From Flavobacteriales bacterium (GTDB lineage Bacteria; Bacteroidota; Bacteroidia; UBA10329), in the NCBI GenBank assembly GCA_016124845.1, contig WGMW01000003.1, positions 27,824 through 91,823 of the forward strand: a stretch of 64,000 bases of DNA, given 5' to 3'. A program made the position numbers and the translations under genes. Shown here piece after piece: positions 5,642 through 27,454 of this stretch (the stretch's first letter is position 1; each line of letters starts with the position of its first letter). Below the pieces are notes generated by a model. The model had not been told where the DNA came from and ran no database searches. It saw nothing but the letters and a program-made list of their open reading frames with translations.

Positions 5642-6047
5642 GCTCTCGTTATATAAAGTTTTCTCTTGAAGGGTTTGGTCATGTCACCACGCATTCAACA
5701 ATGCGACATGATCTTTCAAATCTGATAAATTCTTCCGTGCCGAAAGTCTTAAGGCTTCCGCTGTTTTAAGGGTTTGGAAGGAGGTTCTATGAATTGGATT
5801 CAACAGAAAATCCCACAACTACAAATAAAGGACATTGAAAGTATGACCTTTTCAGCCCATCGGTTTTAGAAAGAACAAGGGGTATAAACATGGAAAATCC
5901 CAAGGATGGTCAGAGGGTTGGTCTCTATTCGGATTTGTTCGTTCGCTTCACGGTCTGGTTATGGAGTCCATGGAAAATCATCCTTTCGACCAGGAAAGAC
6001 GAGAGGATTGAACCTTGCGCCAAATGGATTGTTTACCTTCCACCATG

Positions 6048-6677
6048 AAGTATTCCATCGTTATAGTATCTATCATTCTCATCGGAGCGATGAGTATTTT
6101 CGGAACCACCAAAAACGAACAGAAAATGAGCAGCAGCGAGGCCGCATTGGAGAAAGCAACTTTCGGAGCAGGGTGTTTCTGGTGTGTGGAGGCCATGTTT
6201 CAGGACATCAAAGGCGTTACCAGCGTGGTGTCTGGCTACAGTGGCGGACACGTGAAAAATCCGTCTTACAAGGAGGTTTGCACGGGAAGAACGGGCCATG
6301 CGGAGGTCATTCAAGTGACCTACGACCCCGATATTGTCTCCTACGAAACGCTGCTGGAGGCCTTCTTCCTCTCGCACGACCCAACGCAACTCAACCGCCA
6401 AGGCGCGGATGTAGGTACGCAGTACCGCTCGGTGATCTTCTACCACACGGCTGTGCAACAGCAGTTGGCAGAGGAGAAAAAGGCGGCACTGAACAGGGAA
6501 GATGCCTTCGGTGCACCAGTGGTAACTGAGATCTCAGCGTTTGAAACGTTCTACCCAGCGGAAGATTACCATCAGGATTACTACGCCATCAACCCCAACC
6601 AGCCGTACTGCTCACGCGTGGTGGGCCCCAAACTGGACAAGTTCAGGAAGGTGTTTAAGGACAAACTCAAGCACTAA
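6048..6677 (+). CDS. msrA: Peptide methionine sulfoxide reductase MsrA with a signal peptide.
   Basis: GAGCFWCVEAMF is the catalytic GCFWC motif, followed by HAEVIQVTYDP. The ORF track starts at 6015. MKYSIVIVSIILIGAMS at 6048 is the more likely start. Confidence 0.85.
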   Translation, partial: KYSIVIVSIILIGAMSIFGTTKNEQKMSSSEAALEKATFGAGCFWCVEAMFQDIKGVTSVVSGYSGGHVKNPSYKEVCTGRTGHAEVIQVTYDPDIVSYETLLEAFFLSHDPTQLNRQGADVGTQYRSVIFYHTAVQQQLAEEKKAALNREDAFGAPVVTEISAFETFYPAEDYHQDYYAINPNQPYCSRVVGPKLDKFRKVFKDKLKH

Positions 6678-7081
6678 CCTCTCAGGTGCCGCCACCCTGA
6701 GCCTGCCCCGTTGCAGAACGGGGTTTCAGGGTCTAAACCAACTAATTCATCCGCCTCCGAGAAACCCAACCGGGCATTCGTCAAAGTCTCCTCATCAAAC
6801 CAATCAGCAGCAAGGTCATCCAAATTTGGATTGGCTTCGCTGATAAGATTGAACTTCCATTCACGGTGCCACCGTTTCAGTTGCTTTTCGCGGGAAATGG
6901 CCTGCGTCATATCGGGGAAATCCTCGTAATACAAAAGGTATTTACAGTTGTATTTCGAAGCGAATTCGGAACCCGTACCAACCTTATGTCTCAACATTCG
7001 CTTTTCCAGATTACCTGTTACACCGATATACAGCACGGTTCGTTCATAGTTGCTGATGATATAGAAGTACCCTTTGATCAT
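6674..7081 (-). CDS. GIY-YIG nuclease-family protein.
   Basis: YFYIISNYERTVLYIGVTGNLEKRMLRHK carries the GIY-YIG signature. Its end overlaps the msrA stop. It lies between msrA and a duplicated msrA 3' fragment. Confidence 0.7.
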   Translation of the reverse strand: MIKGYFYIISNYERTVLYIGVTGNLEKRMLRHKVGTGSEFASKYNCKYLLYYEDFPDMTQAISREKQLKRWHREWKFNLISEANPNLDDLAADWFDEETLTNARLGFSEADELVGLDPETPFCNGAGSGWRHLRG

Positions 7082-7132
7082 GGCCTATCAAAGTTAGTCT
7101 CCGTTTCAATCTTCTCAAACGTATCAGGTCGT

Positions 7133-7325
7133 GTCACCCTGAACTCGTTTCAGGGTCTGTGGTTACAAGGTTCTATGTGGATTCAGATGCTGAAACAAGT
7201 TCAGCATGACGCTTCGAGTTATCACACTGCATACGAGAGCGTGTCACCCTGAACTTGTTTCAGGGTCTATCCAATTTGGAACTATGGAATAGATGCTGAA
7301 TCCGCCTGAGGCGGACAGCATGACG
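7133..7325. repeat. Cluster of four hairpin repeats from the two-hairpin element family, in the GTCACCCTGAAC(T/A)(T/C)GTTTCAGGGTC and ATGCTGAAACAAGTTCAGCATGAC forms.
   Basis: Hairpins at 7133-7158, 7185-7211, 7241-7268 and 7291-7325. The last has an extra inner palindrome, CCGCCTGAGGCGG. Confidence 0.7.
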
Positions 7326-7346
7326 CTCCGATGGAGGTTAACAGAG

Positions 7347-7447
7347 GATTACTGCGCCATCAACCCCAACCAGCCGTACTGCTCACGCGTGGTAGGCCCC
7401 AAACCGGAGAAATTCAGAAAGGTGTTTAAGGATAGGTTGAAGAACTA
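7347..7447 (+). repeat. Duplicated 3'-terminal fragment of msrA of about 100 bp.
   Basis: GATTACTGCGCCATCAACCCCAACCAGCCGTACTGCTCACGCGTGGT...GGTGTTTAAGGA...TAA aligns to 6575-6677 at roughly 85% identity. Confidence 0.75.
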
Positions 7448-8503
7448 AGGGTTCAATTTGTAGTAGAGCAGGCATTTCTCTCCAATGACATCTCCATCTT
7501 CATTGAAGGTGTCGACAATAACTCCCAATCCAAGTACTTTCTTCTCGAACCTGAGGTTTTCGGGGTCGAAAAACCATTCTTCATCAAAGCGAAGTTTCTT
7601 GATTGTAGTCCAATCAGAAAGTTCATAACTGTGAGCTTGAATTTTGTTGTCCGTCATACCGGACAATAATGGGTCACTTGAATACCAATTGGATCTACCA
7701 TAAAAGAGGGTGGCTAGACCCGTATTGACGTATTCCGTTCTTTCAATGAGACTGTCAAACGGAAATTCACCCCAGAATGCTGGCAACGGAGTTACTGTAT
7801 CTCGAAGTGCATCAAACTTTAACGCACCAAAAAAACGTTCTCTTTTGGATGGCTCTAGGTAGTTGTGCCACCAGTTATAGTCGTTACACTCATTCTCTTG
7901 CGTTTTTGTAACGGGAACATCATAAATTATCCTACCAAGTGAGAATTTTTCTTGAAAAGAATTGATAGTGCTGTCATTGAGTGACGTGTAGTAATTACAG
8001 GTCATGCCAATGTTATGGGTGTATTTATCTTGAAAAAGAATGACTCCATTTACAACCTTTTTGAACACATTCGTTTTTTCATCATAGTGCCAGCTTTCTA
8101 AGAATGAAAGACTGTTTATCAGGTTTCTGTGTACCTGATTATCTCTTAACGCGTTTTTCCCCTTTTCACATTTGTACTGAATACTATCGTTCCATGAAAA
8201 ACGACCTTCGGCAAGTGCATGTCTCAACTTATTGAAAGGTTGAACCATATTTCCAACCTGATCGCCCCAATAATAGCTCGCTTGTAGTTTCCCATCTCGA
8301 ATTAAGTCGCACAGTTGATTTATGGCCTTGGTTTTTGATGAGTCGTCCAAAAACTCATAATAGTCACCAACCTTGCTCTTCTTTCCGTCAAATCTTACCG
8401 TGTAGATTATTCTATCAGTTATTTCTTCAAATGATTGTGCTCTTACATGGCCTCCATAAAGGCTGAGAAGTACTAGAAGCGAAAAGATGCGAAATGGATT
8501 CAT
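7445..8503 (-). CDS. Hypothetical secreted protein of 352 aa.
   Basis: Signal peptide MNPFRIFSLLVLLSLYGGHVRA. GC is lower than in neighbouring genes. No motif recognised. Confidence 0.5.
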   Translation of the reverse strand: MNPFRIFSLLVLLSLYGGHVRAQSFEEITDRIIYTVRFDGKKSKVGDYYEFLDDSSKTKAINQLCDLIRDGKLQASYYWGDQVGNMVQPFNKLRHALAEGRFSWNDSIQYKCEKGKNALRDNQVHRNLINSLSFLESWHYDEKTNVFKKVVNGVILFQDKYTHNIGMTCNYYTSLNDSTINSFQEKFSLGRIIYDVPVTKTQENECNDYNWWHNYLEPSKRERFFGALKFDALRDTVTPLPAFWGEFPFDSLIERTEYVNTGLATLFYGRSNWYSSDPLLSGMTDNKIQAHSYELSDWTTIKKLRFDEEWFFDPENLRFEKKVLGLGVIVDTFNEDGDVIGEKCLLYYKLNP

Positions 8504-8506
8504 TCC

Positions 8507-9976
8507 TTAGTTATGAAACTCAAAATCCCCATCCTTCACCTTCTTGGTAGCGCGCATGTAATTGAAAGTGAAATCGGGCCAAACGGAGGTGTTCTTGCCC
8601 GTTTTGGAGATGTACCAACTGTTGCAGCCGCCCACAGCCCACACGGTGGTGGCCAGTTTGCGCTGTATGTCCGCGTTGTAGGTTTGCTGCACTTCGGGCT
8701 TCACATCCAGCGCCTTAGCGTGGTGGCGTTGCAGCGCTTTCAGGCATTCGATGGTGTATTGTACTGCAGCCTCTATCATAATGATCATGCTGGTGTGGCC
8801 CAGTCCCGTGTTGGGGCCAATGAGCATGAACATGTTCGGGAAACCGCTCACCACCGTTCCGAGATACGCTTCGGGGCCGTCCTTCCAAACATCCAGCAGT
8901 TGCTGCCCGTCCTTGCCCGAAACCTTGAACCATGTGGGGAAATCGGCCGCCTCGAACCCTGTGGCGTAAATGATCACATCCACCTTGGTCTCGCGGCCAT
9001 CCTTGCCCAGTAGGCCGCTTTCGGTAATGCGCTCAATGCCTTCGGTGTGCAGTTGCACGTTCTCCTTGGCAATGGCAGGGTAGAACACGTTGGATGGCAG
9101 AATGCGCTTGCAACCGGGACTGTAGTTCGGGGTCAGTTTCTCGCGCAGTTCGGGGTCTTTGATGCCTTTTTTCAAATGACGTTTTCCGATGCCTGCAATG
9201 AGTTTCGTCCATTTCGGATTAAACACGATGAGGTTCACCGTGAATTCGTTCTGCCAATAGATGCGCCAACGGTACAGTTTCTGAACCAACGGAAGGTGTT
9301 TGAAAAGCCACTTTTCGAAGCCTTTCATTTCTCGGTCTGGTTTGGGGATGACCCACGCAGGTGTGCGCTGATAAAGGTGCAGTTCCGCAACGGTATCGAC
9401 TATGTTCGGTACAATTTGAACTGCGCTGGCACCCGTGCCCACCACGGCCACTTTCTTGCCTTTCAAGTCTACGTCATGCCGCCATTTCGAAGAATGGAAA
9501 TGCGGCCCTTTGAAATCATTGATTCCTTCCAAATTCGGGAACACGGGACGGTTGAGCGGCCCCATGCCGTTTATCCACTTGTTGCATTTAAAACTGGTGC
9601 CATCCGCCAAGTTGATAGTCCACTCGGAAGTGGCTGCATCATAATCGCCACCCAGCACCGATTTCCCGTAACGGATGTACGGCTCCAGCCCGTATTTCTG
9701 CACGCAATGCTTGGTGTAATCGTATATCTCTCTGTGATTGGCGAACATGCGGCTCCAGTTCGGATTGGGTTCAAACGAGTAGGAGTAGAGGTGCGAGTGC
9801 ACATCGCAGGCCGCACCCGGATAGGTGTTGTCGCGCCACGTGCCGCCCACATCGTCAGAACGTTCGAGAATCAGGAAATCCTTGAAGCCGTTTTCGAGCA
9901 GTTTGATGCCCATGCAAACGCCCGCAAATCCGGTTCCTACAACTACAATGTCAACTTTCGATGGAAGTTCGTTCAC
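8507..9976 (-). CDS. Baeyer-Villiger / flavin-containing monooxygenase (class B).
   Basis: VVGTGFAGV is the FAD GxGxxG. FKGPHFHSSKWRHD matches the BVMO fingerprint FxGxxxHxxxW. VAVVGTGASAVQ is the second, NADP-binding GxGxxG. Confidence 0.75.
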   Translation of the reverse strand: MNELPSKVDIVVVGTGFAGVCMGIKLLENGFKDFLILERSDDVGGTWRDNTYPGAACDVHSHLYSYSFEPNPNWSRMFANHREIYDYTKHCVQKYGLEPYIRYGKSVLGGDYDAATSEWTINLADGTSFKCNKWINGMGPLNRPVFPNLEGINDFKGPHFHSSKWRHDVDLKGKKVAVVGTGASAVQIVPNIVDTVAELHLYQRTPAWVIPKPDREMKGFEKWLFKHLPLVQKLYRWRIYWQNEFTVNLIVFNPKWTKLIAGIGKRHLKKGIKDPELREKLTPNYSPGCKRILPSNVFYPAIAKENVQLHTEGIERITESGLLGKDGRETKVDVIIYATGFEAADFPTWFKVSGKDGQQLLDVWKDGPEAYLGTVVSGFPNMFMLIGPNTGLGHTSMIIMIEAAVQYTIECLKALQRHHAKALDVKPEVQQTYNADIQRKLATTVWAVGGCNSWYISKTGKNTSVWPDFTFNYMRATKKVKDGDFEFHN

Positions 9977-10008: not shown

Positions 10009-10091
10009 AGCCACAGATGCACAGATTGACACTGATTTTCACAGAGAATATTTAATCCGTGTTTTCTGTGAAAATCTGTGCATCTGTGGCT
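10009..10091. repeat. Long palindromic intergenic element from the AGCCACAGA...TCTGTGGCT family.
   Basis: AGCCACAGATGCACAGATTGACAC...GTGAAAATCTGTGCATCTGTGGCT. The two arms are near-perfect reverse complements. Confidence 0.75.
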
Positions 10092-11793
10092 ATAAAATGT
10101 TCTGTTTCTTTTCGGCAGGAGTCAATTCCTGAATCCAAGAATTATCATACGGAACGAATATACCCGAATTGTCGGCTTCTTCTTTGGTGATTTTCGTATC
10201 CACGTAATGCGCCAATACCTTGAACGCAGTTGGTTTCATGTCTTTCAGTACCAGCAACGCGGTGTTCATGCCCGATTTAACGGCTATGGGAACGCCACCG
10301 CCAAGGTCTGCCCAATGGCCACCAAGCCAAAGGTTCTTCACGGGCGTTCTGTGCCCCGCAATTTTGGCCTGCATGTTTGCCTTTCCAGGGCGCGCACCCA
10401 TCAGCGAGCCATCGCGGTTTCCCGTGTAGCGCCAGTGCGTAATAGGCGTTGCGATGTCGCAATACTCAATGTGCGAACGGATGTCCTTGCCGAGTTTCTT
10501 CTCCACGCGGTCAATGAGCACATCTGCATATTCCTGCTTGAATTTCTTGTACGCCTCGCCACGTTTCAGATGACCGTGTTCATCGATTTCCGTCATCCAT
10601 TGCTCATTCTGATGGAACCGTGCGTAGCAGTAAATGGTCATGGTGCCTTTGCCTTTCGGTGCCAATGATGGGTCGCGGAACGAAGGAGCGAGAACGCTGA
10701 TGCCCGCTTTGTGCGGGTCGCCTGCGTTGTGCTCCGTGCGTTTCACATCATCACGCACAATGAAAAGCATGGCGTCATCCAGACCGAGTTCTTCCACAGG
10801 GCAATTCAGTGCTAAGTTGATGGTCACAGCCGAGCTGTAGAGTTCCGCGTCCTTCAGTTTCTTCTTGATGGTGGTTGGAACAGCCGTGTCGGGAAGCATC
10901 TTCTCATACAGCGTTTCCACATCGCAAGCGGCAATGATGTGCTTGGCTTTTACGGTGAATTTCTCGCCTTTTCTGTCGAGGGTGACGCCCTTGGCCTGCC
11001 CATTTTCCAGTTCAATTTTCTCAACCCGATATTGGAAATGAACGTCATTTCCGAGTTTCTCGGTCACGTATTGCAACCACTCAGGAAATACCTGACTTCC
11101 ACCTTTCGGTGGACTCTGATAATCGCTATAATACGCCCATCCGATAGGCACCAACGCAGAAAGCAATTCCTCTTCCGACCCAAAGATTTTCAGCATTTCA
11201 GGGTCTTTGAAGTAGCGCTGCAATCCTTTCACCGTTCCTTCGGGTCCTGTAAAACGGATGTGCTTCAGAAACGCCATTGCGAATTCCAACCGTTGCATGT
11301 TGAAGAAGAATTTCTCCAAGAAACCCATTGTTTCCAACGAACGCGAGAAAGCGGGCAGTCCGTCAAACGACTTTCCTATCTGCTTGGCATCCTTGAAAAA
11401 GCGTTCAATGCCGTCCTTCTCGTGCAGGAACTTGGCAATGAGCTCTGCTTTCAGTTCATCGGGATTGTTGGTGAGATGATAGCTGTACGTATCGCCCACA
11501 TATCGCTTGATGTTCGGCTGAATTTCTGCCACAGGATGGTCGTTTCCAATGAAATCGAAAACGCGGGTTACCAGACCTCGCGGTCCGCACTGGTTCAACC
11601 AATGAATGGCGCTATCAAAACGGAAATCCTTCCTGCGGAAACCTGCCAGATAACCCCCTGGCCGACTGTCCATTTCGAAAACGCCAACGGAAAGTCCAGC
11701 ACGGCTTAGCAGCGCAGCAGAGGTCAGTCCGCTAACGCCCGCACCGATGACAACCACATCGTAGGATGGTTTGATGGGTTGGTGACGCATCAA
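10090..11793 (-). CDS. FAD-dependent oxidoreductase of the phytoene-desaturase (CrtI) / amine-oxidase family.
   Basis: DVVVIGAGVSGLTSAALLSRAGLSVGVFE...PGG is the Rossmann FAD motif. Length 567 aa. Confidence 0.7.
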   Translation of the reverse strand: MMRHQPIKPSYDVVVIGAGVSGLTSAALLSRAGLSVGVFEMDSRPGGYLAGFRRKDFRFDSAIHWLNQCGPRGLVTRVFDFIGNDHPVAEIQPNIKRYVGDTYSYHLTNNPDELKAELIAKFLHEKDGIERFFKDAKQIGKSFDGLPAFSRSLETMGFLEKFFFNMQRLEFAMAFLKHIRFTGPEGTVKGLQRYFKDPEMLKIFGSEEELLSALVPIGWAYYSDYQSPPKGGSQVFPEWLQYVTEKLGNDVHFQYRVEKIELENGQAKGVTLDRKGEKFTVKAKHIIAACDVETLYEKMLPDTAVPTTIKKKLKDAELYSSAVTINLALNCPVEELGLDDAMLFIVRDDVKRTEHNAGDPHKAGISVLAPSFRDPSLAPKGKGTMTIYCYARFHQNEQWMTEIDEHGHLKRGEAYKKFKQEYADVLIDRVEKKLGKDIRSHIEYCDIATPITHWRYTGNRDGSLMGARPGKANMQAKIAGHRTPVKNLWLGGHWADLGGGVPIAVKSGMNTALLVLKDMKPTAFKVLAHYVDTKITKEEADNSGIFVPYDNSWIQELTPAEKKQNIL

Positions 11794-13049: not shown

Positions 13050-13129
13050 GGCCACAGATGCTCAGATTTTCACTGATTCTGCACAGAAAATTGATCAGAG
13101 AAATCTGTGTAAATCCGTGAATCTGTGGC
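13050..13129. repeat. Long palindromic intergenic element from the AGCCACAGA...TCTGTGGCT family.
   Basis: GGCCACAGATGCTCAGATTTTCAC...GTGAATCTGTGGC. Confidence 0.7.
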
Positions 13130-13139
13130 GTTAAAGTGT

Positions 13140-14654
13140 TCACTCGGTGTCCTTAATTCGTTTTAATAATTGCTTCTTATCCAAAAATTGACTGCATGTG
13201 ACGATTGAACTGATGGTAACACCAAAGATGCCATGCAGGTTCAAATATTGTCCAGTCAACCAAAGGTTGGGGATTTTTGTTTGCGGAGAGATGAAATTCG
13301 TCAGCCCTCTGCGGAAATCTTTTTCGGTTCCGTACATGTTTCCATCATCATTGCCGATGTAATCGCGGAAAGTAAGCGGGGTTGAAGCATGCACACTTTG
13401 AATGCAGTTTCTGATCTCAGGGAAACGCTTTTCAACCGCATCCAATAACTGTTCGGTTTTCTGATGTTTCCAAGCTTCGTAATCGGATGGGCGTTCGTGC
13501 GGGGAAACAATCGTGTTCTGCGAATTCGCCCATTGTTCCACTTCATCAAACCGCATGTAGGTCATGATGGAAATGCCGTCTGCCCATTCATCCGACTTTG
13601 AAGTGGCGGGCGTGCAAAGCAGGTATTGCAACGGCCATTCAGCTTCCGTGTAATCAGGTTTGGCCCAAACATGATTGGAAGTGTGGTGATAAACATTGTA
13701 GTTCAGATACGGGAACGATTGTGGCTTGCAAACGATGTGCACCGAAAAGCTGGAAAGCGTGTGTAGAGCGCGCTGAAACCGATTGTAAAATGACGGTTTG
13801 AAATGCTCCTTTCCGATCATCTGCAACAGCACTTTCGGTTGAATGTTGGAGATGAAATTCTTGCCTTGGAAGGTTTCTCCGTCTTCGGTTTTCGCGGCCG
13901 TGAGTTGACCACTTTCCAGTTCAAAACCGACCACTTTCTTTCTTCGCAGCACTTCACCGCCTTTCTCGCGGATGCGCTTGGAAAGTTCCTTGGCCAATTG
14001 CGAACCGCCATCCACGCAACGGTATGCGCTCAACACATATCCATGCGTGACCAACGCATGAATATAGAGTGGACACTTCTCAGCAGAACCCGCGTAAAGC
14101 AAGTTTGAACCCGCCAGGACTGCCCGTAATTTCGGGTTGAGTGTAAGTCCATCGATCAACTCTTTGGCACCAAGACCCAATAGGCCGATGTCTGTATGGT
14201 CTTGCTCCGAGAATTCAAGTTGATCCAACGGGAACGTGGTCACGGTTTCCTGAATGGTTCGGCTGTAAAGTTGAATGGCTTTTTCTTCATCAGGAAACTC
14301 CTTGATCAATTCGTCTTCGAAAGCTTCCCAAGAACTGGTATGATGGAATTTCGAGCCGTCATCAAAACTTATTTGGTCGAAATGGTTGTCCATCTTCTTC
14401 CATTTCACACTTTCTGTAAGTCCGAAGTATTTGAAGTAGGAGTGAAGTGGTTGGCCTTCGTCCAGCGCGGGCAGATAATGCACGCCTGTATCGAAAACCG
14501 TTTTGTCCCTACTGAAAACCTGTAACGAGCCGCCCAACTGTTGGTTCTTTTCCAGCACACAGATACTGAAACCATGGTCAGCCAAGATGTAAGCACATTG
14601 CAAGCCACCCAGCCCACTACCAATGATCACGAAATCGTACACCTTCTCCGTCAT
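13140..14654 (-). CDS. FAD-dependent oxidoreductase, CrtI / retinol-saturase-like.
   Basis: MTEKVYDFVIIGSGLGGLQCAYILADHGFSICVLEKNQQLGGS. The track extends this to a TTG at 14672. The ATG at 14654 is the more likely start. Confidence 0.7.
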   Translation of the reverse strand: MTEKVYDFVIIGSGLGGLQCAYILADHGFSICVLEKNQQLGGSLQVFSRDKTVFDTGVHYLPALDEGQPLHSYFKYFGLTESVKWKKMDNHFDQISFDDGSKFHHTSSWEAFEDELIKEFPDEEKAIQLYSRTIQETVTTFPLDQLEFSEQDHTDIGLLGLGAKELIDGLTLNPKLRAVLAGSNLLYAGSAEKCPLYIHALVTHGYVLSAYRCVDGGSQLAKELSKRIREKGGEVLRRKKVVGFELESGQLTAAKTEDGETFQGKNFISNIQPKVLLQMIGKEHFKPSFYNRFQRALHTLSSFSVHIVCKPQSFPYLNYNVYHHTSNHVWAKPDYTEAEWPLQYLLCTPATSKSDEWADGISIMTYMRFDEVEQWANSQNTIVSPHERPSDYEAWKHQKTEQLLDAVEKRFPEIRNCIQSVHASTPLTFRDYIGNDDGNMYGTEKDFRRGLTNFISPQTKIPNLWLTGQYLNLHGIFGVTISSIVTCSQFLDKKQLLKRIKDTE

Positions 14655-14766
14655 TCGCTGCGAAGGTCGCAAACGCGCGGTTAATTGGATTACGGTGATT
14701 TACGGATGAGGAAATGAAAAACGTGAAACATGTAATTGAAGTTATCTTTTGAGTTAACTTTGCGGT

Positions 14767-15105
14767 GTGGTAAGGAAAATCATCTTCTTCGAAACGCACT
14801 TTATTGAGTTCTATCAGGAGCAGGACGCGAAGGTGAAAGCCAAGATCCAGTACGTGCTTGAACTGATAAAACAGGTTGACCGCGTGCCAGAGAAATTCCT
14901 GAAACACTTGGAGGGAACGGATGGTCTGTATGAGATACGGGTCGAGTTCCAATCGAACATTTACCGCATCTTCTGTTGTTTTGATGAAGGACGGTTGGTG
15001 ATACACTTCAACGGTTTTCAGAAGAAAACGCAGAAGACACCGAAGAACGAAATTGAAAAGGCGCAGCGTTTGATGCGGCAATATTTTGAACAGAAAAGCA
15101 ATTGA
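14767..15105 (+). CDS. Type II toxin of the RelE/ParE superfamily, Gp49/HigB-like.
   Basis: 112 aa. The FYQEQDAKVKAKIQYVLELIKQ...YEIRVEF...RIFC pattern is typical of the phage Gp49-like killer family. Its end overlaps the start of the downstream XRE gene by 4 bp, so the toxin comes first. Confidence 0.65.
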   Translation: MVRKIIFFETHFIEFYQEQDAKVKAKIQYVLELIKQVDRVPEKFLKHLEGTDGLYEIRVEFQSNIYRIFCCFDEGRLVIHFNGFQKKTQKTPKNEIEKAQRLMRQYFEQKSN

Positions 15106-15407
15106 AAATGGACAGATACGCGAACATCAAGGATTTTGACCAGCTTGTTGAACTCGAACATGGAAAGGTCGGTTCTGAAAGTAGAAACCGCTATGAGGAG
15201 AATGCACAGATGTTCATCATCTCTGAGATGTTGAAGGCTGCACGCAAGGAGGCCAATCTTACGCAAGAGCAATTAGCAGAAAAGACAGGCACCAAGAAGA
15301 GCTACATATCCAAATTGGAGAACGCCAAAGGGAACATTCAACTTTCCACGCTCATCCGCATTTTTGAGCAGGGGCTTAACAAGCGAATTGGGCTTACCTT
15401 TCTGTGA
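15102..15407 (+). CDS. HTH_XRE antitoxin, partner of the upstream toxin.
   Basis: LKAARKEANLTQEQLAEKTGTKKSYISKLENAKGN is a canonical XRE helix-turn-helix. Confidence 0.65.
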   Translation: MKMDRYANIKDFDQLVELEHGKVGSESRNRYEENAQMFIISEMLKAARKEANLTQEQLAEKTGTKKSYISKLENAKGNIQLSTLIRIFEQGLNKRIGLTFL

Positions 15408-15417
15408 TGGTTGGAAT

Positions 15418-15502
15418 AGATGCTGAAACAAGTTCAGCATGACGGCAACGGTTTACCATTAAACTTCTCAGAGTGCGTCAACCTGAACTTGTTTCAGGTT
15501 CT
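15418..15502. repeat. Two-hairpin element.
   Basis: AGATGCTGAAACAAGTTCAGCATGACGG at 15418-15445 and GTCAACCTGAACTTGTTTCAGGTTCT at 15477-15502. Confidence 0.7.
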
Positions 15503-15510
15503 GTTTTTCG

Positions 15511-15632
15511 AGATGTACGCACATTGCAGGCCGCCCAGCCCACTACCGATGATCACGAAATCGTACAGCTTCTCCGTCATTCGCTGCGAAGGTCGCAAAC
15601 GCGCGGTTAATTGGATTACGGTGATTTACTGA
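15511..15632. repeat. Duplicate of the 5' end and upstream region of the oxidoreductase gene at 14586-14705, of about 120 bp. It encodes a truncated MTEKLYDFVIIGSGLGGLQCAYIS peptide.
   Basis: It aligns to 14586-14705 with only a few mismatches. It includes the 36-bp motif AAACGCGCGGTTAATTGGATTACGGTGATTTAC. Confidence 0.75.
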
Positions 15633-17209: not shown

Positions 17210-17269
17210 TTCGCTTTCCTCAAAACGAAAGTAACACAAGTCAAATTTGGAAACGCGCGGTTAATTGGA

Positions 17270-17776
17270 TTACGGTGATTTACGGAGGGTTTGAGCAAAG
17301 TCAAAATATGTCAGTAGTAGCGTTAACAAAACTATACCCGTGATGAAGGCGAGATGATGAGTAATATTCCTTACCGTCAAACTCAAATGTTTTCTAACAG
17401 TTTTTCCAAAAACGAGAACGAGGAATATTGTGAAGAATAAACAAAGAATTGTAATATAGATTTCCCCATAAGAAATCAGGAAGTCAGCCAAATTTTGACT
17501 TGGCTGAGGATTAGTTTTGTTAAGAACAGAGATTGCCCTGTACAGGTAGAACACCTGAGGGTAAACTGATATCCAAAGTCCGATTTTAACTCTTCTCAGG
17601 ATAAGTGCTAAACCCAAAACCATGAGAAGAATTGGAAACAATTTCTCCAGAAACATAAAATCGGTTGCATCAAAATAACGCAGGTAATGTGTTGATAGAA
17701 TGAGGCTGTTCCCAATTGATACAATCAACCCTGAAATGGCTAAAGGAATTACCACTATGAAATTGGTCGCTCTCAT
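17270..17776 (-). CDS. Hypothetical integral membrane protein of 168 aa with about 5 transmembrane segments.
   Basis: Several hydrophobic helices. The TGTTACTTTCGTTTTG motif lies 12 bp upstream of the start. Confidence 0.5.
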   Translation of the reverse strand: MRATNFIVVIPLAISGLIVSIGNSLILSTHYLRYFDATDFMFLEKLFPILLMVLGLALILRRVKIGLWISVYPQVFYLYRAISVLNKTNPQPSQNLADFLISYGEIYITILCLFFTIFLVLVFGKTVRKHLSLTVRNITHHLAFITGIVLLTLLLTYFDFAQTLRKSP

Positions 17777-25141: not shown

Positions 25142-25520
25142 AGCCACAGAAACACAGATTTACACAGAAAGACACAGAGAACATTCTCTGTGAAAACCTC
25201 TGTGCTTTCTGCGCCTCTGTGGCTAAACGATTTTCTCGGTGCATCTCCATTTCTCAGATTTTCTCTGTGCAATAATCCTCTTTGCATCTCTGCGTCTCTG
25301 CGTGAGATAAAAAGAACAGACATGTTAAAGCCACAGAAACACAACTTGTCCCGACACTTCGGGAGATTTACACAGAATGAAAAAGGAGTTTTTTCTGTGA
25401 AAACCTCTGTGCCTTCTGCGCCTCTGTGGCTAAACGATTTTCTCGGTGCATCTCCATTTCTCAGATTTTCTCTGTGCAATAATCCTCTTCGCGCCTTTGC
25501 GCCTTTGCGAGAGGTAAATT
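25142..25520. repeat. Tandem duplication of about 2 x 190 bp of the palindromic element plus its 3' extension.
   Basis: 25142-25223 and 25331-25433 both read AGCCACAGAAACACA...TTCTGTGAAAACCTCTGTGC(C/T)TTCTGCGCCTCTGTGGCT. Each is followed by AAACGATTTTCTCGGTGCATCTCCATTTCTCAGATTTTCTCTGTGCAATAATCCTCTT. The ORFs 25127..25558 (+) and 25138..25479 (-) are translations of this repeat. Confidence 0.75.
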
Positions 25521-27151: not shown

Positions 27152-27305
27152 AGCGGCATGTGCGTTTGGGTAGGCTGAGCGGAGCCGAAGTCTACAGAGG
27201 TAGGCTTGGCTGTACCCTTCGATTGCCCTCAGGGTACGGCTGCTCGCACCACGTTTTACCTTTGTTGATTTTGCGGAAGACGCGTTTGCAAAATGCTGAG
27301 TGGGG

Positions 27306-27454
27306 GTTGCATGCCACTCTATGGTGATTGCATGCCAGCCGTTCGGTGAGGCATACCACCGAGACGCTGAGGCATCCCAGAAAGACGCGGAGGCATACTG
27401 GAAAGACGGGATTGCATACCGCAAAGACGGGGAGGCATGCCAGCTATTGGTGGA
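27306..27454 (+). repeat. Seven degenerate direct repeats of 21 bp, iteron-like.
   Basis: GGTTGCATGCCACTCTATGGT, GATTGCATGCCAGCCGTTCGGT, GAGGCATACCACCGAGACGCT, GAGGCATCCCAGAAAGACGCG, GAGGCATACTGGAAAGACGGG, ATTGCATACCGCAAAGACGGG, GAGGCATGCCAGCTATTGGTGG. Confidence 0.6.

Follow-up and report, generated by a model that had tools for sequence, protein, structure and literature searches.

The Ssn proteins are a family of single-domain GIY-YIG proteins (CDD cd10448) that cut single-stranded DNA (ssDNA) alone, at a point a few nucleotides to the 5' side of their cognate hairpin repeat (NTS/SRM), and their genes are typically bracketed by such repeats (Chenal et al. 2025, PMC11893778). SsnA was described from Neisseria meningitidis, and its catalytic residues Y6, Y17 and E64 were mutagenised; the Neisseria enzyme cleaved at about 3 nt from the 5' side of its repeat (PMC11893778). 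The family was described in 2025, and the mobility of its genes had previously only been hypothesised. Here we report on a 64,000-nt stretch of DNA from a Flavobacteriales bacterium (assembly GCA_016124845.1, contig WGMW01000003.1, positions 27,824 to 91,823 of the forward strand; hereafter the window, with coordinates counted from its first nucleotide), in which the 3' end of the gene msrA is present twice, on either side of a GIY-YIG gene and a set of hairpin repeats. Our analysis suggests, with a probability that we put at roughly 0.5, that this direct repeat is the scar of a one-sided homologous and illegitimate recombination with foreign DNA, which would have taken place beside an Ssn module in a gap where cassettes are exchanged. 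The kind of element is already known (Ssn/SRM, 2025); the duplication scars are a new detail.

Several other described systems share features with this locus. In Neisseria, minimal mobile elements and the NIME/dRS3 variable loci hold alternative whole-gene cassettes between conserved genes, with hairpin repeats nearby. The window resembles them in that msrA and a flavin monooxygenase (FMO) gene bracket alternative cassettes, exchanged through conserved flanks; it differs in that it belongs to another phylum and that exchange here would be read from the comparison of metagenome-assembled genomes (MAGs) and contigs. Homology-facilitated illegitimate recombination, known from Acinetobacter and Streptococcus pneumoniae, combines one homologous anchor with an illegitimate joint, and the anchor may be duplicated; the likeness lies in the retention of foreign DNA and the duplication of the anchor. 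GIY-YIG homing endonucleases (I-TevI, Seg, Mob) have the same catalytic fold as the window protein, which differs from them in having neither a DNA-binding extension nor an intron or phage context nor a recurrent target, and in being accompanied by a target duplication. Finally, repetitive extragenic palindromes (REP/BIME) with their RAYT transposases (REPtrons, REPINs) are likewise dispersed extragenically, often directly behind stop codons and in the form of inverted dimers, and they too include a nuclease gene, present once, with inverted copies of the repeat on either side; the window locus is nevertheless not a REPtron, its protein being GIY-YIG, with PF01541 as sole domain, and not an HUH/Y1 (IS200/IS605-like) transposase. 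A comparison of the Ssn layout with REP/RAYT has been published (PMC11893778).

The direct repeat at the msrA 3' end

A repeat search of the region returned a sole family, a direct repeat of 104 nt at 6574-6677 and 7345-7448, with a spacing of 771 nt and 88% identity between the copies, which align without gaps (MAFFT) and include a 40-nt stretch that is identical in the two msrA tails; when the region was compared with the whole window by blastn, the match had an E value of 1.7e-33. A weaker 5' extension of about 14 nt is possible (6560-6573 versus 7331-7344, with one indel in the MAFFT alignment). A preliminary description of this DNA had placed the duplicated msrA ends at 6575-6677 and 7347-7447 with about 85% identity and had read their C-termini as DKLKH (upstream copy) and DRLKN; these readings hold. 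It had also placed an opposite-strand GIY-YIG gene and four hairpins between the copies, and here the gene was found as described, on the minus strand, together with five hairpins.

The upstream copy (6574-6677, plus strand) is the working 3' end of an intact msrA gene (6045-6677, plus strand; 210 aa; PF01625, E=3.8e-68), whose product is 96% identical to the MsrA proteins P0121 and P0122 of relatives and which at the nucleotide level is 91.3% identical to msrA at locus L088, one of two loci (L088/L089) of the closest relative. The downstream copy (7345-7448, plus strand), delimited by the same alignment and repeat search, is an orphan tail of 34 codons that ends in DRLKN and a stop, and this stop overlaps the stop of a convergent GldN-like gene. 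The 51-aa open reading frame (ORF) at 7293-7448 is a pseudogene fragment. No record was retrieved by exact-product look-ups of this orphan ORF, of the window MsrA or of the 135-aa ORF of the GIY-YIG gene, and no Rfam family reached its gathering threshold anywhere in the window.

The junction on the right is close to a hairpin. The GTCA end of hairpin B lies at 7324/7325, the clear repeat begins at 7345, and its weak extension begins perhaps at about 7330; the orphan tail starts 5 to 20 nt past the GTCA side of this hairpin.

An Ssn-like gene and its hairpin repeats

The gene between the copies (6674-7081, minus strand; PF01541, E=1.3e-14) is ssn-like, with a core at 6746-7081 and a last 23 codons that read through hairpin A. 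In a profile search, PF01541 spans residues 3 to 78 and no second domain exceeded its cut-off; neither this nuclease nor the GldN-like protein had an NCBIfam match. Close homologues have 111 to 112 aa and end in ...AKLGFSNPEP, and the ORF in the window has 135 aa; judged by these homologues, the 135-aa ORF is a read-through of a 112-aa gene after stop loss. The overlap of the gene's end with the msrA stop, to which the preliminary description drew attention, is real, but it arises solely because the gene's own stop has been lost and 23 extra codons run through hairpin A. For annotation, this means that the 135-aa ORF overlapping msrA and the 51-aa ORF at 7293-7448 need re-reading, the one as a read-through and the other as a pseudogene fragment.

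A BLASTP comparison of the window protein with SsnA of Neisseria gonorrhoeae gave 44% identity over 91 aa (E=1e-25, 79 bits), an E value far below the 1e-10 to Neisseria SsnA that is used to define Ssn homology (PMC11893778). Residues Y7, Y18 and E65 align with the mutagenised Y6, Y17 and E64 of SsnA and are invariant in 17 homologues, and the size of the protein without its read-through lies in the range of single-domain GIY-YIG proteins of the family (about 94 to 112 aa). A tblastn search of PLSDB with the window protein matched an ORF on an N. gonorrhoeae chromosome (E=2e-16 in 7.3 Gb); this ORF has 94 aa, carries Y6, Y17 and E64, and lies among 16 NTS copies in 3.3 kb. The record concerned, NZ_CP119140.1 (L173), from which both the SsnA orthologue and the NTS array were taken, is a 2.17-Mb N. 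gonorrhoeae chromosome filed as a plasmid. UPF0213 proteins of solved structure gave only marginal sequence matches (PDB, E=0.008).

Five hairpins accompany the gene, and all of them fold as stable ssDNA stem-loops (z scores from -2.3 to -4.3). Two are compound and mark the ends of the module: hairpin A (6691-6733, plus strand; dG -13.7 kcal/mol, z -3.4), in which a GCCA-stem and a stem-TC enclose a nested stem-loop, and hairpin B (7292-7324, minus strand; dG -11.2 kcal/mol, z -4.3), each of which occurs once in the window. The other three, at 7133-7157 (plus strand), 7186-7210 (minus strand) and 7243-7267 (plus strand), are simple hairpins identified by motif search and ssDNA folding. Six further simple hairpins lie at four other intergenic sites of the window with no ssn gene nearby, where they form inverted dimers after stop codons. 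The locus thus has the arrangement expected of an ssn gene, with oriented repeats on both sides (five flanking) and further copies dispersed between genes (six).

The repeats themselves follow the Neisseria plan in their frame and depart from it in their stem. Window hairpins read (C)GTCA, a 7-nt stem (YSCTGAA), a loop, the complementary stem (TTCAGSR) and TC, where the NTS reads CGTCA, TTCCCGC, loop, GCGGGAA and TC. The published SRM string, HGTCWYN(0-2)YYVSBRHN(0-5)WNVSBRGN(0-2)RNCYNB, had no match in the window and matched in 5 of 85 loci of homologues, and the same string recovered nine NTS in the Neisseria locus; the window hairpins keep the GTCA...TC frame and have a different stem composition. 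Two further differences from the Neisseria layout concern the position of the repeats: the hairpin directly 3' of the gene in the window is oriented oppositely to that in Neisseria, and in many homologues of the Bacteroidota type the hairpin itself encodes the final codons, L-D-P-E-T-S-S-G-stop, as was seen in at least 14 loci, where the distance from the start of the hairpin to the end of the stop codon of ssn is 22 nt.

Because of the homology to SsnA and the hairpin context, we assign the window protein to the Ssn family and not to the homing endonucleases, and on the same grounds it is predicted to be an ssDNA nuclease. The question whether it is a small standalone protein or a homing endonuclease is thereby answered in favor of the former.

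Ssn homologues at other loci

The homologue set comprised 85 loci (L083-L087 and L093-L172) that encode proteins with 49 to 84% amino acid identity to the window protein, 70 of them with full flanks. A hairpin adjoins ssn (no more than 300 nt upstream or 150 nt downstream) in 67 of the 70, and on both sides in 50; hairpin density is 5.6 per kb beside ssn and 0.11 per kb at more than 600 nt from it, a difference of about 50-fold. In about a quarter of the homologue loci, ssn is flanked by direct copies (50 to 190 nt) of composite hairpin units. msrA was near an ssn homologue in none of the 85 loci, so site-specific homing is not indicated.

The closest counterpart is found in a second MAG of the Flavobacteriales and on a JGI contig (L086/L087), which encode an Ssn protein 84% identical to that of the window and whose nucleotide identity with the window is 78% over 6670-7097 and 76% over 7184-7325. 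Hairpins A and B are found there in the same positions and orientation, B upstream of ssn and the GTCA ends facing outward, and the neighboring genes are unrelated; homology to L086 ends immediately past hairpin B. Since L086/L087 carry the same unit, A and B included, at an unrelated genomic site, the hairpin-ssn-hairpin module is a portable unit.

Two flanking repeats in the homologue set were considered as possible duplications of host genes and rejected: a 172-nt repeat (L130), which ends in a hairpin and resembles a composite repeat unit, and an 85-nt repeat (L101), which is weak and intergenic.

Variable gene content between msrA and the FMO gene

The msrA loci of relatives were examined for an empty site, and empty sites are common: 80 species-level loci, searched within 5 kb of msrA, as well as L088/L089, L090-L092 and L174, about 85 loci in all, lack both a GIY-YIG gene and a duplicate of the msrA tail. 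The 80 species-level loci are also nearly free of hairpins (4 in 734 kb).

The synteny of msrA with a convergent FMO gene is kept in six relatives (L001, L002, L004, L006, L007 and L008), and what lies between the two genes differs. The gap is about 400 bp and without a gene in L004, L006, L007 and L008, holds a gene for 326 aa in L001, and in the closest relative (L088/L089; MsrA 96% identical) is occupied by an Mrr_cat gene. In the window, the gap contains, besides the Ssn module, the GldN-like gene (7445-8503, minus strand; a weak GldN match), which has a GC content of 39% against 52% in the flanking genes and reads as a compositionally foreign cassette. This gene was absent from the msrA locus of every relative; the nearest homologue, at 55% identity, is surrounded by unrelated genes, and there is no close homologue. 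At L174, whose MsrA is also 96% identical, the msrA tail itself is different: the last 30 or so codons, ending in ..KFRKAFKQTP, replace those of the window from about 6580, and a DUF7282 gene follows.

The FMO gene (8507-9976, minus strand), identified by synteny and nucleotide comparison as the conserved right flank of this variable locus, is 97 to 98% identical to that of L088 over 450 nt (8627-9076) and 85 to 91% identical elsewhere; the tract 8627-9076 reads as a recombination mosaic beside the variable cassette. Because gap content differs among close relatives and the GldN-like gene is of low GC and without a close homologue, the msrA-FMO gap appears from these comparisons to be a hotspot of cassette exchange with breakpoints inside the msrA 3' end. 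Different cassettes between the same flanking genes, as seen here, are what defines exchange of the minimal-mobile-element type.

As a separate observation, the comparison with L174 (its positions 274-900) places a recombination breakpoint almost at the left edge of the window repeat.

Mosaic differences between the two msrA tails

Mismatches between window msrA and that of L088 are unevenly distributed. There are 12 in the 89 nt of 6484-6572, 2 in the 89 nt of 6573-6661 (Fisher p=0.01) and 8 in the final 16 nt. The drop from 12/89 to 2/89 argues that the working gene contains a discrete patch (6573-6661, plus strand) that is unusually close to L088, the limits of which coincide with those of the repeat, its left edge being the left edge of the repeat.

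The last 16 nt of the working gene (6662-6677, plus strand; ..D-K-L-K-H-stop) are of another character. They hold 6 private changes (CAAACTCAAGCAC versus KAGGTTGAAGAAY), and the preceding 88 nt hold 2 (Fisher p=1e-4), both synonymous relative to L088; this agrees with the earlier remark that the upstream copy ends in a different C-terminus, here a non-native one. These 16 nt appear to be a foreign patch, which may also be derived from the module: from about 6670 the msrA end aligns with the hairpin linker of L086, and for the KLKH-stop ending this alignment and one with a divergent msrA allele are about equally good.

The orphan copy has 4 private changes and no allelic differences relative to L088 in its first 88 nt, and 3 of the 4 are non-synonymous at conserved residues (Y to C, L to P and D to E). 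Its ending ..DRLKN resembles those of relatives (..ERLKN in P0121/L088, ..ERLK in L001). As its private changes are mostly non-synonymous at conserved residues, these comparisons indicate that the orphan tail has kept the relatives' ...RLKN ending and is decaying.

A second hairpin-associated duplication

The window contains four dispersed direct repeats of at least 70 nt, and only two of them have hairpins that separate their copies and come no further than 25 nt from one of these. The second of these is a 122-nt direct repeat (14585-14706 and 15511-15632; 95% identity) that covers the 34-nt leader of an amine-oxidase gene together with its first 29 codons. Enclosed by the copies are a gene pair for a Gp49-like toxin and a helix-turn-helix (HTH) antitoxin (14767-15407) and a hairpin dimer (15419-15501), which ends 9 to 11 nt from copy 2. 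The copies have five coding differences, four synonymous and one V/L; under neutrality, at most one non-synonymous change among five has a probability of about 0.02 by our own binomial estimate. The differences fit two alleles rather than a drifting pseudocopy. This second scar speaks for a process that has acted repeatedly, with foreign alleles and with joints next to hairpins.

Origin of the duplication

From the mosaic pattern of msrA, the portability of the module and the empty sites of relatives, we infer an order of events, a foreign origin of one of the arms and any part for Ssn cleavage in the joint. The Ssn module extends over about 6678-7329 and consists of the nuclease gene, its cognate hairpins and the outward-facing A and B at its ends, and close relatives appear to swap cassettes between msrA and FMO by recombination with breakpoints in the msrA 3' end. 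DNA from a foreign strain may then have paired through one homology arm and been joined illegitimately at its other end beside hairpin B, so that this arm stayed on as a second copy in addition to the resident sequence, which it would otherwise have replaced. The tracts would be explained with the fewest assumptions by an imported, L088-like fragment (7345 to about 9076) made up of the GldN-like gene with the orphan msrA tail on one side and the 3' third of FMO on the other. A homologous crossover would have taken place in FMO, and the opposite end of the fragment would have been joined illegitimately to the DNA beside hairpin B of an Ssn module already present; the orphan tail would later have converted 6574-6661 of the resident msrA. 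The orphan tail may thus have arrived with the neighboring GldN-like cassette, and if so, the GIY-YIG gene was not inserted between the two halves of a duplication. If the enzyme cuts as Neisseria SsnA does, the cut would fall at about 7328/7329, near the junction of the orphan tail, a coincidence that is suggestive only.

Several points tell against this account. A mirror-image version, in which the Ssn module entered with its own msrA arm by a Campbell-type or single-strand insertion, fits nearly as well; both versions amount to one-sided homologous and illegitimate recombination with foreign DNA and dispense with a step of homing or transposition. Searches for a donor or intermediate found neither an msrA ending in ..DKLKH nor an intact msrA(..RLKN) directly beside a GldN-like gene: a degenerate 33-mer with which metagenomes were scanned for the two msrA endings had no match, and none of the homologues of the GldN-like gene has a donor arrangement around it, their surroundings being unrelated. 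None of the 85 other ssn loci has a duplicated host gene, the flanking direct repeats there being hairpin units. The synonymous differences in the second case could also have come about through recombination of the intact copy with further alleles, once a duplication had arisen in situ. Finally, the window is a contig of a MAG, and when independent sequence was sought for the junction between hairpin B and the orphan tail, two Logan contigs that carry the GldN-like gene (L081/L082) were found to stop inside the shared stretch of the repeat, so that they neither confirm nor refute the linkage.

Among the other explanations, the one that survives best, though we consider it unlikely, is that the Ssn module is an autonomous element akin to an insertion sequence (IS), with widely staggered single-strand cuts or a circular intermediate yielding target duplications of 90 to 120 bp. 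The module is discrete and portable and is bounded by outward-facing compound hairpins, the orphan tail starts near where Neisseria SsnA would cut, two long hairpin-associated duplications occur in one 64-kb window, and the repeat-ssnA-repeat layout was itself likened to an IS by the authors who described it (PMC11893778). However, the second duplication has no ssn gene and hairpins on one side only, the duplicated lengths differ (88 to 104 nt versus 122 nt), and the copies differ by allelic-looking changes, as would not be expected had they been identical at the outset. In the 85 other ssn loci, moreover, it is hairpin units and not host genes that are repeated on the two sides, and strand transfer is not known for Ssn (PMC11893778). 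The target-site duplication of a conventional transposon is short (2 to 15 bp), initially identical and directly abuts the ends of an element that encodes a transposase; we rejected it as an origin of the repeat, which is 104 nt long at 88% identity with heterogeneous divergence, in a region where no transposase domain was found.

It is conceivable, if decidedly doubtful, that Ssn hairpins are preferred sites for cutting and joining foreign or displaced ssDNA, and that a nuclease-assisted insertion-duplication captures or retains Ssn modules and other cassettes that end in these hairpins, leaving orphan copies of 90 to 120 bp from the gene next door. If true, this would give Ssn a direct role in the acquisition of cassettes, including a toxin-antitoxin pair.

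A one-off local duplication without foreign DNA, through slippage or template switching at the hairpins or an unequal sister exchange, and followed by ordinary divergence, would accommodate the fork stalling known for hairpin-forming repeats, the decay-type changes in the orphan copy and the fact that no donor was found. We nevertheless hold it to be improbable, since divergence is heterogeneous along the repeat, with 6 differences in the last 16 nt against 6 in the preceding 88 (p=1e-4), and since the orphan copy and FMO 8627-9076 share an L088-like ancestry that the body of msrA does not; in the second case, four synonymous changes to one conservative change would be unlikely for a copy drifting freely (p of about 0.02).

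Still less probable is an artefact of assembly, in which two co-occurring strains, with msrA next to the Ssn module in one and next to the GldN-like gene in the other, were merged in the contig. The source is a MAG, the copies share an identical 40-nt stretch, and the independent Logan contigs break there; but the junction that runs from hairpin B through 20 nt into the middle of msrA (7325-7345) could not be created by k-mer overlap of intact alleles and must be present in reads, the junction of hairpin and copy 2 at 15501-15511 must likewise exist in reads, and a simple chimera would yield one hybrid msrA and not two tails.

The preliminary description had proposed the footprint of a homing or insertion event, and its suggestion that a GIY-YIG endonuclease gene homed into msrA and regenerated the 3' end is extremely improbable, for although a GIY-YIG domain, empty sites in relatives and a non-native ending of the working copy are all present, the protein is single-domain and much nearer to SsnA (79 bits) than to any other protein compared, its 112-aa core has no DNA-binding domain or region where a fused protein of about 200 to 300 aa would be expected, no recurrent target exists (0 of 85 homologue loci are near msrA, and the msrA loci of about 85 relatives carry no GIY-YIG gene), and homing by double-strand-break repair (I-TevI and Seg type) is not known to duplicate its target, let alone about 100 bp of it. 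An insertion-related scar is what stands of that proposal.

We therefore retain one-sided homologous and illegitimate recombination beside the Ssn module as the preferred account. The locus adds to the family a member of the Bacteroidota type with hairpins outside the published motif, direct comparative evidence that a hairpin-ssn-hairpin unit is portable from one genomic site to another, and two independent scars in one genome in which a long duplicate of a host-gene end lies beside hairpins. If the link between hairpins and scars is general, it would make the influence of Ssn and its repeats on recombination accessible to concrete tests.

Other repeats in the window

A palindromic repeat unlike those above, about 85 nt long (GCCACAGATGCACAGATT ... 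AATCTGTGCATCTGTGGC), occurs at 10013-10100 and 13055-13140, in intergenic positions 3 kb apart around two minus-strand genes; it would represent a second hairpin family of the genome or one resembling miniature inverted-repeat transposable elements (MITEs). Short imperfect tandem units (..gaggcataccaccgagacgc / gaggcatcccagaaagacgc / gaggcatactggaaagacgg..) lie at 27160-27450, downstream of a hairpin dimer, and a near-tandem direct repeat of 156 nt (25156-25311 and 25364-25518; 89% identity) has no hairpins nearby. A 36-nt motif, AAACGCGCGGTTAATTGGATTACGGTGATTTACGGA, is found at 14671-14706, 15597-15632 and 17251-17286, that is, in the amine-oxidase leader, in its duplicate and upstream of a gene for a cyclic nucleotide monophosphate (cNMP)-binding regulator, and may be a common regulatory site.

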